Of a stretch of DNA of 43,264 nucleotides, positions 19,831 to 23,772 are shown piece after piece. Numbering within the stretch: position 1 is the stretch's first letter; every line of letters starts with the position of its first letter. Source of the DNA: an uncultured Eubacteriales bacterium (GTDB lineage Bacteria; Actinomycetota; Coriobacteriia; Anaerosomatales; CAVRZR01); assembly GCA_964456615.1 (NCBI GenBank), contig CAYWCB010000001.1, forward strand, positions 1 through 43,264, in the 5' to 3' direction. The notes below the pieces were generated by a model. That model worked only from the letters and a program-made list of their open reading frames with translations, was not told the origin of the DNA and ran no database searches. A program made the position numbers and the translations under genes.

Positions 19831-20905
19831 GTACCGATATGTCTGGACACCTGACGTTCCCGTCGCACCCGGAGAGACCATCCGTGAGATCCTCGAAGAG
19901 CGCACGATCTCGCAAGTAGACTTCGCGACGCGACTGGGCAGGAGCGAGAAGTTCGTCAGCCAGCTGGTCAACGGCAAGGCCCCACTCACCTACGAAACTG
20001 CCATCGAGCTCGAACGGGTTCTTGGCGTACCAGCCTCCTACTGGAACAGGGCGGAGGCGACCTATCGCGGACTCCTCGCGCGACAGGAGCAGCTGGCGGC
20101 ATCTGAAGCACGGGCCGAATGGGTCCGCTCATTCCCGGTGAAGGAGATGGCAGAGAAGGGTTGGGTCGCCCGTGAAACGAGCCCAGCCGAGCAGGCAGAG
20201 GAGCTTCTCTCGTTCTTCGGGGTATCCTCCATTGAGGCGTATCGTGACTACTGGTCAGCCGAGAAACGACTCGCCGCGCGCATGAGCAGCGCGTACACCC
20301 CCGAGATTCCTGCTGTCACGGCGTGGCTCCGCGCGGGCGAGCGAGAAGCGGAGACGATTGAGACCGCACCCTACGACGAGAAGCGATTCCGCGACGTACT
20401 CAACGAGCTCAGAGCTACGACTCGTCTGACGCCCGACCAGTGGGTACCGCTTCTGACGAGCCGCTGCTCTGACGTAGGCGTTGCGGTTGTGTTCGTACCC
20501 GATCTGCCCAAGACGCGCTGCCACGCTGTCAGCTGGTGGGTCAATCGCAATCGGGCAGTGATCCAGCTCGGGCTGTTCTACAAGACCGATGACCAAGTGT
20601 GGTTCAGTTTCTACCACGAGGCCGCTCACCTGCTTCTCGACAGGAATCGTTCGCGAATCAGTGACCTGAACGGCGATGCTGAGACCGAGGACAGGATGAG
20701 TCGGTTTGCGGGCGATCTACTGATCCCGCCGACCGAGTATCAGGACTTCCTTTCTGGAGGTCGTCCATCGAAGGTGGAGGTGCTCGCGTTCGCCAAGCAG
20801 TCGAACATCGCCCCCAGCATCGTGGTGGGAAGACTGCAGCGAGACGGAATCATCCCGCACAAATGGATGAACGACCTGAAGACGAAGCTGGACTGGGCCG
20901 TCTAG
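19820..20905 (+). CDS. higA: XRE-family HTH (HigA-like) fused to an ImmA/IrrE-type zinc metallopeptidase domain
   Basis: HTH ISQVDFATRLGRSEKFVSQLVNGKAPLT. HExxH in FYHEAAHLLL. Overlaps higB by 11 nt. Its TAG stop shares the palindrome CTAG (20902-20905) with the convergent nuclease gene. Confidence 0.8.
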   Translation: MATEYRYVWTPDVPVAPGETIREILEERTISQVDFATRLGRSEKFVSQLVNGKAPLTYETAIELERVLGVPASYWNRAEATYRGLLARQEQLAASEARAEWVRSFPVKEMAEKGWVARETSPAEQAEELLSFFGVSSIEAYRDYWSAEKRLAARMSSAYTPEIPAVTAWLRAGEREAETIETAPYDEKRFRDVLNELRATTRLTPDQWVPLLTSRCSDVGVAVVFVPDLPKTRCHAVSWWVNRNRAVIQLGLFYKTDDQVWFSFYHEAAHLLLDRNRSRISDLNGDAETEDRMSRFAGDLLIPPTEYQDFLSGGRPSKVEVLAFAKQSNIAPSIVVGRLQRDGIIPHKWMNDLKTKLDWAV

Positions 20906-22050
20906 GGGGACCCGCTCTTGTCCGCTTGCGTCTGCGCCTCAGCGGCGAACCACTCGATGGCGTCAGTCAGCAGTCCGAACGCCTCATCTGAAGTGAACAC
21001 GTTGTAGGGCACCACTGGACGCTTGCTATCTAGCGTCCAATCGTCGTCCGGAATGTTCGCTCCCTGAATCCGGTTCAGCCGCCTCACGAACTCCCGTCGA
21101 ACCTCCATGTCGTCGAACGGTGGCCACGTCCGCATGTAGTAAAGCGGGAACTCGATGCCGCCCACTGTGTAGCACACCGCCGGAACGTACTCCGTGGCTC
21201 CCGCAGGAATCCTCGCGCCGAATGAGCCGCTCACCTTGCCGACTCCGAACACGATGCGGTACCGCTTCGAGCGGTTCCAGTCGTAGAACCGGCGCACTAG
21301 TGCGACCTCGCCCGGCGGGAAGCTCGCTTCAACCTCCGCAAAGAAGCTTGCCTCATCCCACCTTCTGCTAGGTGCGGTCCCGCTCTTCCGCTGCACCGCC
21401 TCCTGCGTCTGCCCGAGCACGCGCGGCGCGAGCATGGTGAGGCCCGCCGAGCCCTCGAACTTGGGGATCTCGACAGCCAGCACCTCGGTGTGGTCCATCT
21501 GCCGGTTCAGGAACTCGACGACGGCGAGAAGCTCCTCGGGGATGCGGTCGGCGACGAAGAGCAGCCGCACGCGCCCCTCCGAGATGTTCTCGCGCAGCTG
21601 TTGCCAGTACGCGGTCGGGTGGACCGACTCGCCGAACGCCCCGACGAGCGCCGCATCGACATCGCTCACGCGCGATGCGAGGAACGACTGGATCGACTCG
21701 ACCGGCCAGTACCGAAGCCCGTTGGCAGCGTAGTCGAGCATCTGACCGACGACCTCGCGCCGGATGCGGCTGTCGGACGCCCGCTTCACCTCGACGAACG
21801 TGGGGATGGCGTCCTGGTCGAGGAACAGGTGGTCGAGCGACCAGCGTCCGGTGGCCCCCTCCTTGTCCGGCACCGGCGCCTCGCGCGTCACGAACAGCCA
21901 CTGCCGAGGAGCCCCCGAACCCATCTGGTCGCCGCCGAGGAGCGCGGGGTGGTCGGCGAGCAGCTGCTGGAGCAGCGACTCGGAGTCGTAGTCGGCCTGC
22001 GAGAGTGGCGTGAGGTTGTTGTCGCCGTCGATCAGGAAGAGCTCAGGCAT
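20902..22050 (-). CDS. NucS/DUF91-like PD-(D/E)xK endonuclease with a roughly 180-aa C-terminal extension (the only full-length copy)
   Basis: Motifs DSESLL, LDQDAIPTFVEVKRASD (D...E-x-K), VVGQMLDYAANG (QxxxY) and VRLLFVADRIPEELLAVVEFLN. The ATG at 22050 overlaps the stop of the upstream radical-SAM-like gene by 8 nt. Confidence 0.6.
   Translation of the reverse strand: MPELFLIDGDNNLTPLSQADYDSESLLQQLLADHPALLGGDQMGSGAPRQWLFVTREAPVPDKEGATGRWSLDHLFLDQDAIPTFVEVKRASDSRIRREVVGQMLDYAANGLRYWPVESIQSFLASRVSDVDAALVGAFGESVHPTAYWQQLRENISEGRVRLLFVADRIPEELLAVVEFLNRQMDHTEVLAVEIPKFEGSAGLTMLAPRVLGQTQEAVQRKSGTAPSRRWDEASFFAEVEASFPPGEVALVRRFYDWNRSKRYRIVFGVGKVSGSFGARIPAGATEYVPAVCYTVGGIEFPLYYMRTWPPFDDMEVRREFVRRLNRIQGANIPDDDWTLDSKRPVVPYNVFTSDEAFGLLTDAIEWFAAEAQTQADKSGSP
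21622..22050. repeat. 429-bp direct repeat, partner at 23869-24297 (period 2,247 bp)
   Basis: By eye there are 9 mismatches, all within the first 130 bp, then about 298 identical bp. The track shows identical 75-aa shadow ORFs at 21764..21991 and 24011..24238. Confidence 0.9.
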
Positions 22051-22861
22051 GCTGCCCCCCGTTCGCACCTAGCGTACCCTGCTTGATGCGCAGAGCCTTA
22101 CCGCGCTCGTCGCACCAGTCTCGAACGCGACCGGCAACGCCCTTATAGAACGAGTGCTCACGGTCGTACGCAGATGCGAGGGCGTTGTAGTTCCACTTGC
22201 CGAACACGACCGAATCAACGAACGCAAGCCGCTCCAGCAGTTGCTCCACGTCAGCTGCCGTGCCATCGATGTTGGGCGTCGGGTATGGTTCGATGCTCAC
22301 CCATGTGCGGCTCCCACCCGACGACAGCTTCTCGAGTGCCGCGATGCGCTCCTCGACGTCTGCGGCGAAGGGTTCCCACTCGCGTTGGAACTCCTCAGAC
22401 AGCGAGACCAGTGATATGCCGTAGCTGTTCAGCGGATGAGCCCAGTCCGCGTTCGCAAGTGACACTGGGCAGAGACCCTTGGTGAGGGTCGTGACAGGAA
22501 TGCCCTCCGAGTTGAGCCGCTTGATGATCTCCATGCTGAGCGCCTGAACATCCTCGCGGCTCGCGCGTGCCGGCGCGTCATACATGAACGGGTCCGTCGT
22601 GAAGCTCAGATGGACAGAGTCGACCTGACCACGCAACCGCTCGAGTTCCGATTCGAGCAGCTCGACGGCATTGGAGACGAGGCACGGCTGAACCCACTCG
22701 TCGTACCCGGAGACGCGGCCAGTCCTTCGAGCAAGCATCATCGCGTAGCACGGATAGCGGCAGCCGTGCGAGCAACCTTGGACGTGGTTGATCGTCCAGC
22801 CTCCGTACTCAACCTTGCTTCGATACAGCAAGGACTTGCGTGTGACGGTGCCAACACTCAT
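22043..22861 (-). CDS. radical-SAM-like protein (SplB/COG1533-like) with a three-Cys motif of unusual spacing
   Basis: WTINHVQGCSHGCRYPCYA gives CX3CX3C instead of the canonical CX3CX2C. The start forms ATGA with the TcmP stop. Confidence 0.7.
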   Translation of the reverse strand: MSVGTVTRKSLLYRSKVEYGGWTINHVQGCSHGCRYPCYAMMLARRTGRVSGYDEWVQPCLVSNAVELLESELERLRGQVDSVHLSFTTDPFMYDAPARASREDVQALSMEIIKRLNSEGIPVTTLTKGLCPVSLANADWAHPLNSYGISLVSLSEEFQREWEPFAADVEERIAALEKLSSGGSRTWVSIEPYPTPNIDGTAADVEQLLERLAFVDSVVFGKWNYNALASAYDREHSFYKGVAGRVRDWCDERGKALRIKQGTLGANGGQHA

Positions 22862-23772
22862 TCGATGACGTCGATGCCTTCCAGGTACTCCTCGGCCCCA
22901 AAGAGCGTCGGCTGGCCGTAGTGGTCGGTCATCTCCTTCGCGTACACATCCCGCATGACCTTGATCACCGTGTCATTGCGGGAAGCGAAGAGCAAGATGT
23001 ACTGCGTTCCGGCTGTTCCGGGCTTCGCCATCCGAAACGCCACGGTCTTCAAGCCTGAGGGAGAGAAGGCCGCTCGAGCATACGTCGCAGGGTTCTCCAA
23101 GTCCTCTGCGCTCAGGAGTGCGCAATCGTCGCCAAAGAACGCCCGTAACCTGCGCTGATTCGCGGGCGCACGAGACGACTCGCCAATCGCCACGCCATGC
23201 ACCCGACGAATCGATTCGAGCATGTAGTTGAAGAGGACATCGAGCCGCCATGGCTGGGCAACGATCGCTTCAACGCTGGCCCTGTCCAGCTCCACTCCGA
23301 AGGGATCGACGAACAAGAAGCACGGCGAGTTGCGTCCAGGTGTGAAGTCCAGTTGGCGAACAGCGTCGTTCGCGTCCAAGTTGGAGAGCTGCACTTCCGC
23401 GAGTTCATTCGCGTCCGGATGTGCTGCGAAGAACTCCACGATGCGACGCTCGAGCTGGGCGAATCGGTCACGATCCTGCTCCACGCACAGAATGTGAACC
23501 TGGACACCGCACGCTCGAAGACGCTCTGCGTGATCCAGCATCTCCTCGAGGAGGACGATGGATGATCCGCTGATCGGCGCTCCATCTGCCCCTTGCGCCT
23601 GGCCAGTTCCGGCGAAGAGGTCCAGCACGTACCAGTCCCGGTCCACCCACTCGCGACATTGGTCGCCCGACCAGATGGTGAGCCAGACGGCGAAGTACTT
23701 CCGCAAGATGGATAGCTTCTTCGCAGTCTGCGGCCGGTACTGGCCGGTGAAGTACTCGTGCTCCTCAGCCAT
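22858..23772 (-). CDS. tcmP: three-Cys-motif partner protein TcmP-like (Rossmann/methyltransferase-like)
   Basis: N-terminus TAKKLSILRKYFAVWLTIW, then VLDLFAGTGQ (SAM-binding-like motif I), as I recall for the TcmP family. GGAGGGGAG RBS. Confidence 0.65.
   Translation of the reverse strand: MAEEHEYFTGQYRPQTAKKLSILRKYFAVWLTIWSGDQCREWVDRDWYVLDLFAGTGQAQGADGAPISGSSIVLLEEMLDHAERLRACGVQVHILCVEQDRDRFAQLERRIVEFFAAHPDANELAEVQLSNLDANDAVRQLDFTPGRNSPCFLFVDPFGVELDRASVEAIVAQPWRLDVLFNYMLESIRRVHGVAIGESSRAPANQRRLRAFFGDDCALLSAEDLENPATYARAAFSPSGLKTVAFRMAKPGTAGTQYILLFASRNDTVIKVMRDVYAKEMTDHYGQPTLFGAEEYLEGIDVIE

Follow-up and report, generated by a model that had tools for sequence, protein, structure and literature searches.

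TcmP, radical-SAM and NucS-fold nuclease genes nested in a Type I restriction-modification locus: a probable junction of two defence-type modules

PDC-M30 and PDC-M41 are two-gene candidate systems, each combining a TcmP-like A protein with a DUF5131 B protein from a family that both share, and were proposed through 'guilt by embedding' in BREX, DISARM and Type I restriction-modification (R-M) loci (Payne et al., bioRxiv 10.1101/2024.01.29.577857). PDC-S11, or Madara, joins an N-terminal NucS-like nuclease to a C-terminal EVE-like domain, and the Madara of E. coli ECOR34 restricts T4 with glucosyl-hydroxymethylcytosine (glucosyl-hmC) but not T4 with cytosine, an activity abolished by the substitution D63A (bioRxiv 10.64898/2026.09.05.749240). 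Here we describe a 43,264-nt stretch of contig CAYWCB010000001.1 from an uncultured Eubacteriales bacterium (the window, by which we mean the whole stretch), in which a TcmP gene, a gene for a radical S-adenosylmethionine (SAM) protein (rSAM) and a nuclease gene lie between the subunit genes of a Type I R-M system.

An initial annotation of the window had proposed that these three genes constitute a single modification-plus-restriction module. We consider it likely instead that two independent defence-type modules meet here, both of them lying within the Type I R-M operon. The first would be TcmP and its radical-SAM partner, working as one enzyme, and the second a stand-alone restriction-type nuclease with no need of either protein. 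The nuclease would be resident in a lineage of loci laid out as hsdM, hsdS, a variable slot and the nuclease gene, and the TcmP-rSAM pair would have reached the slot by recombination, with a second, 428-nt copy of the nuclease 5' end remaining upstream as a trace. The ATGA overlap between TcmP and rSAM would then be intrinsic to that pair, and the 8-nt overlap between rSAM and the nuclease a by-product of ATGCCTGA. The features of the R-M locus are listed below; loci with L-numbers are comparison loci, mostly metagenome contigs.

26132-27679, minus: hsdM, full length; DNA 86% identical to the hsdM of L004, whose product has HsdM_N and N6_Mtase
24949-26142, minus: hsdS, full length (Pfam Methylase_S)
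24428-24952, minus: RiboL-PSP HEPN gene (PF18735, 29.5 bits against a cut-off of 28.4)
23863-24297, minus: truncated nuclease copy, a 144-codon open reading frame (ORF) with GTG start, 143 nuclease residues, Ser and stop
23773-23862, minus: unique 90-nt spacer between the nuclease fragment and TcmP, the left cassette junction
22858-23772, minus: TcmP, 304 aa (TIGR04474)
22043-22861, minus: radical-SAM partner, 272 aa (PF04055)
20902-22050, minus: nuclease of the PD-(D/E)xK type with predicted NucS fold, 382 aa (predicted structure and invariant residues)
19820-20905, plus: helix-turn-helix (HTH)-XRE and M78 peptidase gene (Pfam HTH_3, Peptidase_M78)
19492-19830, plus: HigB-like toxin gene (Pfam HigB-like)
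16145-19318, minus: hsdR, 1057 aa, colinear with the hsdR of L004 (HSDR_N, ResIII, T1RH-like_C)

The foreign genes are embedded between intact, co-oriented hsdM/hsdS and hsdR, all three of which are colinear with L004, and at least four extra modules (HEPN, TcmP-rSAM, the nuclease and HigB/M78) are nested there. Much of the initial description of the locus held. The three minus-strand ORFs stand head to tail between hsdS/HEPN and hsdR, each with strong homologues, and the shared nucleotides at both gene borders can be read directly from the sequence: ATGA at 22861-22858 for the TcmP stop and rSAM start, and ATGCCTGA at 22050-22043 for the rSAM stop and nuclease start. The flank that had been called 'hsdS-HEPN' is correct in position, but it consists of two genes with a 4-nt overlap and not of one fused unit.

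Co-occurrence of the three genes

With the rSAM profile we recovered 80 metagenome loci, for a total of 85 distinct TcmP/rSAM loci. TcmP lies immediately upstream of rSAM in 43 of the 80, and in 17 the two form a single fused ORF of ~590 aa (L018, L020-L022, L024-L030, L034, L037, L041, L045, L067 and L068, with L026 cut by a contig end); 9 further loci of the 80 carry divergent TcmP types that still pass TIGR04474. In the 586-aa fusion of L018, TIGR04474 spans aa 16-283 and rSAM spans 313-530. The 4-nt ATGA overlap of the window recurs in L001, L002, L003 and L097. TcmP and rSAM are inseparable and behave as one unit.

The nuclease keeps different company. Its hidden Markov model (HMM) matched nothing in any of the 85 TcmP/rSAM loci, and no other nuclease family recurred beside the pair in the loci surveyed. 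The nuclease itself was found without TcmP or rSAM in eight distinct loci (L004/5, L006, L009, L094, L095, L096, L098 and L099), three of which are Type I R-M loci of the window's own lineage, with the following gene orders.

L004: hsdM, hsdS, SIR2, nuclease, M78/HigB, hsdR; colinear with the window at 80-93% DNA identity
L098: hsdM, hsdS, a 241-aa protein, nuclease
L099: hsdS, nuclease, with nothing between

Because L004, L098 and L099 keep the nuclease with other cargo or with none, the nuclease is a resident gene of this Type I R-M lineage, and between it and hsdS lies a variable slot, in which TcmP-rSAM is one of several cargoes; only the pair looks inserted.

These distributions bear directly on the dedicated three-gene system of the initial annotation, in which TcmP and rSAM would install a radical-chemistry modification on host DNA and the nuclease would cut DNA that lacks it. 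The head-to-tail genes with overlapping stops and starts, the methyltransferase fold of TcmP, the megacluster that its radical-SAM partner shares with spore photoproduct lyase (SPL), an enzyme acting on DNA, and the setting in a defence island are all what such a system would lead one to expect. Conserved co-occurrence is nonetheless absent in both directions, for pair loci and nuclease loci alike, and a lack of linkage between TcmP and nucleases in other genomes was the very observation that the initial annotation had named as telling against its idea. Moreover, the closest relative of the nuclease, 83% identical, sits in the L004 island without the pair and is tolerated alone, and the junction of the modules is a recombination scar (see below). 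The related PDC-S11/Madara also cuts modified and not unmodified DNA, a logic opposite to that of a classical R-M pair. Based on these data, we regard the three-gene system as very improbable.

The neighbours of the pair in the metagenome loci were enriched for Eco57I/MmeI-type methylases (8 loci), N6_N4 methylases (see below), HsdM/S and SNF2 with PLD (4 loci); Schlafen AlbA_2 was also seen, and AbiJ, VRR_NUC and AbiE follow the pair in L097. The preferred sites of TcmP-rSAM are within or next to R-M and DISARM-like genes. A mainly phage-borne origin of the pair was considered and set aside, the phage collection having yielded no TcmP match and only three for rSAM, of which two come from metagenomic phage records that carry no annotation.

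As a separate observation, an N6_N4 (CcrM/ParB-type) DNA methyltransferase adjoins the pair in 7 of the 80 loci, directly downstream in six and directly upstream in L041. Such a methyltransferase together with TcmP-rSAM could represent a conserved three-gene variant.

The duplicated 5' end of the nuclease gene

Spacer, TcmP and rSAM are flanked by a 428-nt direct repeat (21622-22049 and 23869-24296, 97.9% identical) that corresponds to nt 2-429 of the nuclease gene and defines a repeat unit of 2247 nt. The upstream copy is truncated and stands directly before the spacer and TcmP; it starts with GTG and ends one codon past the end of homology, and the nuclease HMM matches 23863-24297 at E 9.7e-81 over profile positions 3-148. 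The two copies are identical over nt 2-299 (298 nt), differ by 9 mismatches within nt 300-390, and are identical again over nt 391-429. This clustering of mismatches led us to reject a simple fresh duplication in situ, and the mosaic suggests two alleles or gene conversion. Other TcmP-rSAM loci are homologous to the cassette in DNA sequence from the TcmP start (~23776) to ~22060-22082, a point ~15-40 nt before the rSAM stop, after which the rSAM frame continues into the ATGCCTGA of the nuclease. The truncated copy upstream of TcmP, which the initial annotation had passed over, is a recombination scar, and because a 298-nt perfect repeat flanks TcmP-rSAM, the cassette can be removed again by homologous recombination.

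Since hsdS of L099 is also terminated by ATGCCTGA, the 8-nt overlap that had been read as coupling between rSAM and nuclease is a property of the nuclease 5' end, which brings its own ATGCCTGA start, and not of a three-gene design. Two sub-models fit the scar: the target segment may have been duplicated in place during insertion, or the incoming DNA may have brought its own nuclease 5' segment and entered by homologous recombination of the Campbell type.

A repeat of this kind also raises the question of assembly, namely whether the real arrangement might be a single-nuclease R-M locus plus a separate 2247-nt circle or variant bearing TcmP-rSAM. The copies share 298 identical nucleotides, which is longer than short reads, a de Bruijn graph loop through the repeat could be threaded in two ways, and the source appears to be a metagenome-type contig. 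Against this, real reads must contain the junction of nuclease nt 429 with the spacer, the assembly kept two different copies apart, as the 9 mismatches in nt 300-390 make plain, and repeat-flanked TcmP-rSAM units appear in three independent assemblies. In L001 a 481-nt repeat, 98% identical (525-1004 and 3038-3516), flanks the pair in a unit of 2513 nt, with a truncated ADP-ribosylglycohydrolase gene upstream and a full ADP_ribosyl_GH-AbiEi gene downstream, the same architecture as in the window; L021 has a 212-nt repeat (6917-7126 and 9118-9326; unit 2201 nt) and L039 an 841-nt repeat (4045-4882 and 8930-9770; unit 4885 nt). An artefact of assembly therefore seems to us scarcely credible.

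A further reading that the locus invites is a secondary partnership, in which modules of separate origin have become useful to each other through their new adjacency, analogous to BREX with BrxU; for example, TcmP-rSAM would act on DNA or nucleotides and the nuclease would cover escaping phages, both being expressed from the hsdMS transcript. A scan of 20500-25200 found no promoter-like or terminator-like site, the genes are all co-directional with hsdMS, complementary embedded systems have been documented, and TcmP-rSAM is often embedded in or beside R-M and DISARM-like genes. The arrangement is unique, however, among the ~95 loci examined, and the perfect repeat would let the cassette be lost. 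We judge it unlikely, and continue with the junction of two independent modules as the preferred reading.

Four occurrences of the nuclease 5' sequence were counted in the window, all of them on the minus strand and each following a different module. Beyond the two copies flanking TcmP-rSAM, two decayed remnants lie downstream of hsdR, among the following features.

15088-16110, downstream of hsdR: Mrr-like PDC-S02 protein
14137-14245, minus: decayed nuclease 5' remnant, 109 nt, 90% identical, with an in-frame TAG (HMM E 2e-5)
13642-14079, downstream of hsdR: AbiEi-like HTH/DUF6922
13014-13658, downstream of hsdR: AbiEii
10429-12843, downstream of hsdR: TOTE-system AEP primase fused to a helicase
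10035-10363, minus: decayed nuclease 5' remnant, 329 nt, 92% identical (HMM E 2.5e-59, profile positions 5-114)

The shorter remnant follows a DUF5678-like ORF/Mrr module, and the longer one lies just downstream of the TOTE AEP-helicase gene, after the AbiE and TOTE module; on the minus strand, the two bracket AbiEi/AbiEii and the TOTE gene. The nuclease gene itself is 92-94% identical to that of L004 over its first 600 nt (21450-22050), against 68-76% in its 3' half and ~80% in the rest of the island, which is consistent with either strong constraint on the 5' end or repeated recombination there.

Repeats of a different gene were also seen in the window. DUF429 is present as one full and three partial copies, with stretches at 32041-32643 and 36577-37000 in addition to the repeat described next. 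A perfect 373-nt direct repeat of the DUF429 3' end (33172-33544 and 35417-35789, 2245 nt apart), one end of which falls exactly at the stop codon, flanks an unrelated plus-strand cassette of two genes, 33619-34221 (a weak match to the DUF6036 nucleotidyltransferase) and 34208-35224. The lengths of the two units, 2245 nt for the DUF429 cassette and 2247 nt for the TcmP unit, are nearly equal.

Taken as a lead, these repeats suggest that such islands exchange cassettes through recombination within conserved 'anchor' genes, whose remnants would stay alike through gene conversion. A broader version, in which the duplicated ~0.4-kb gene ends would be footprints of a general, undescribed way for small defence cassettes to enter anchor genes without destroying them, is in our view conjectural and rather doubtful. 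In one form of it, ~2.2-kb units carrying a piece of the anchor would integrate by homologous recombination, and if true, the island would be built around the nuclease 5' end as its recombination anchor. We rejected a site-specific mechanism, which might have been suspected from repeats ending at the start codon of the nuclease and the stop codon of DUF429, because gene conversion bounded by pre-existing homology explains these ends more simply. That TcmP-rSAM serves as its own mobility machinery was likewise rejected, since an unrelated cassette bears the same scar.

Between the nuclease and hsdR, the HigB-like and HTH-M78 genes (19492-20905) run convergently to the nuclease gene; PADLOC PD-Lambda-2_B matches this pair (4.6e-31), and the same pair occupies the equivalent site in the related R-M island L004 (7906-9325). 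The window contains no tRNA genes and hence no tRNA-linked integration site.

The encoded proteins

TcmP scored 123.9 bits with TIGR04474, well above the curated NCBIfam cut-off of 53 (E 1e-35, profile positions 1-262 of 263), which bears out the initial identification; the motif DLFAGTG noted at that stage is present. Pfam assigned it to no family and gave nothing useful even at E<=10. The profile reaches ~2,800 clusters at 50% identity. Among 24 relatives, D51, G55 and G57 of the motif D51-L-F-A-G55-T-G57 are invariant, as are D133-x-N135 and D156-P-x-G159, and E98 is nearly so; DPFG stands at the position where amino-methyltransferases have DPPY. An AlphaFold2 (AF2) model (predicted local distance difference test, pLDDT, 84.9) used in a Foldseek search returned 134 matches at E<=1e-3, of which the best was RlmJ, the 23S rRNA N6-methyladenosine (m6A) methyltransferase (E 5.5e-7), and which included other class I SAM methyltransferases. 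The model thus predicts for TcmP a class I SAM-methyltransferase fold, with a Rossmann-like core, motif I, an acidic motif II residue and a motif IV loop. Judged by these motifs, the SAM-binding site appears intact, SAM binding and catalysis being predicted functions. In PADLOC, TcmP matched PDC-M30A (3.6e-22) and PDC-M41A (1.3e-11), covering the A models over the N-terminal 60% only.

The partner passed PF04055 (Radical_SAM, 34.3 bits against a gathering threshold of 29.5), whereas DUF5131 (PF07505) stayed below threshold (16.2 against 28.9) and matched the N-terminal 40 residues only. The PA0069 and Rv2578c models of NCBIfam were also below their cut-offs (54.9 against 360 and 53.2 against 430), and rSAM_mob_pairB was far below. 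At least 4752 homologues were found, some with both PF07505 and PF04055, and product names at JGI are 'DNA repair photolyase' (COG1533) or 'radical SAM protein', in agreement with the earlier SplB/COG1533-like classification. The cluster motif C30-x3-C34-x3-C38 (GCSHGCRYPCY, window 22749-22775) departs from the canonical radical-SAM CX3CX2C: its three Cys are invariant in 28 of 28 sequences and the CX3CX3C spacing is kept in 27, the remaining sequence having a one-residue deletion that yields CX3CX2C. DUF5131 and SPL belong to the same RadicalSAM.org megacluster 5 (PMC9477430), and sequence kinship places the partner, in all probability, in this SPL/DUF5131 branch of the superfamily. Searches of PDB sequences with single proteins and profiles found nothing significant for TcmP, rSAM or the nuclease, the partner profile reaching SPL at E 0.7 only.

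From the frequent fusions, the methyltransferase fold, the SPL/DUF5131 kinship and the methylase and defence neighbours, we infer that TcmP-rSAM is a single two-part enzyme acting on nucleic acid, most likely DNA.

The nuclease belongs to a family of at least 7949 homologues (7949 of 8000 scored candidates were significant), always annotated 'hypothetical protein' and found in Actinomycetota, Armatimonadota, Euryarchaeota and others, as well as on plasmids. Neither Pfam nor NCBIfam matched it, Pfam giving nothing at E<=10 for the whole protein or either half, and it has no sequence-level membership in PF01939 (NucS/DUF91). The initial assignment to NucS-like PD-(D/E)xK nucleases nevertheless agrees with the residues D73, E87-x-K89 and Q103xxxY107, invariant in 38 sequences, and with the structural matches of an AF2 model (pLDDT 91.4), for which Foldseek placed NucS 2vld first (probability 0.99, E 3.5e-3), followed by EndoMS 5gke, SduA, Card1 and Exo5; TM-scores against NucS/EndoMS are low, at 0.2-0.3. 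The model is that of a NucS-like fold within the PD-(D/E)xK superfamily, with predicted cleavage activity. Translation most likely starts at ATG 22050 and not at GTG 22068.

The N-terminal domain of the nuclease (~aa 1-225) is conserved and the C-terminal domain is variable among relatives; P0021, P0026, P0091 and P0092 have only the N-terminal part in common with it. PADLOC PDC-S11 matched aa 16-248 (40.3 bits, E 4.7e-11, profile positions 11-216 of 358), leaving the C-terminal 135 aa uncovered. The protein would be a stand-alone restriction nuclease with the variable C-terminal domain as its sensor or specificity domain, and by analogy with PDC-S11/Madara its targets may be DNA that is modified or foreign in some other way.

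Several points weigh against a junction of independent modules as we have described it. The survey was biased toward close rSAM relatives (46-66% identity) and short metagenome contigs. Given the tight packing, TcmP, rSAM and the nuclease are probably transcribed together with hsdMS, and a secondary interplay of the modules through co-expression is possible. If incoming DNA brought its own nuclease segment, as in the second sub-model, some donor must already have had TcmP-rSAM next to a nuclease homologue. The PDC-S11 match is modest and limited to the N-terminal 60%, so a Type IV-like activity is an analogy. Finally, in the literature on TcmP, TIGR04474 and DUF5131 we found no functional study, in keeping with the earlier remark that neither the TcmP family nor its three-Cys partner has an established function.

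Comparison with known systems

The locus is of interest mainly for its recombination scars and for TcmP-rSAM, an enzyme pair that has yet to be characterised. The frequent fusions, the methyltransferase fold and the R-M and DISARM-like neighbours narrow the search for its function to chemistry on nucleic acids, in the context of defence or counter-defence. The adjoining nuclease belongs to a separate, very large family outside Pfam that is related to Madara, which removes a tempting modify-and-cut lead. The duplication scar, and the differing cargo in the slot across four related Type I R-M loci, illustrate concretely how embedded defence genes are exchanged.

Like PDC-M30 and PDC-M41, the pair is a two-gene cassette of TcmP and a three-Cys radical-SAM-like protein embedded in an R-M-type locus, but its B protein is of the PF04055/COG1533 type, and the B models match weakly (PDC-M41B 9.3e-4, PDC-M30B 8.6e-3, ~50 residues). 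SplB/COG1533, PA0069 and Rv2578c lie in the same radical-SAM branch and give weak NCBIfam matches, whereas the partner falls far below their cut-offs, has CX3CX3C and is obligatorily paired or fused with TcmP.

The nuclease resembles Madara in being a single gene with an N-terminal NucS-like PD-(D/E)xK domain and a presumed C-terminal sensor, located in or beside another defence system. The C-terminal domain of Madara is EVE-like, however, whereas that of the window nuclease is unmatched and variable among relatives. With NucS/EndoMS, the archaeal and actinobacterial mismatch endonuclease (PF01939), it has in common the predicted fold and the D...ExK...QxxxY signature, but sequences do not match, the domain order differs, and the gene is in a defence island and is not a repair gene.

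As with PrrC in EcoprrI and BrxU in BREX, a host system has extra defence genes set among its subunit genes in the same orientation; here the nested modules are several, and nothing points to control of any of them by the host Type I enzyme. Both modules are thus of kinds already catalogued as defence candidates, one with experimental support in a relative (Madara), and what is new at this locus is a PF04055-type partner with CX3CX3C in place of DUF5131 and a nuclease with an unmatched C-terminal domain.

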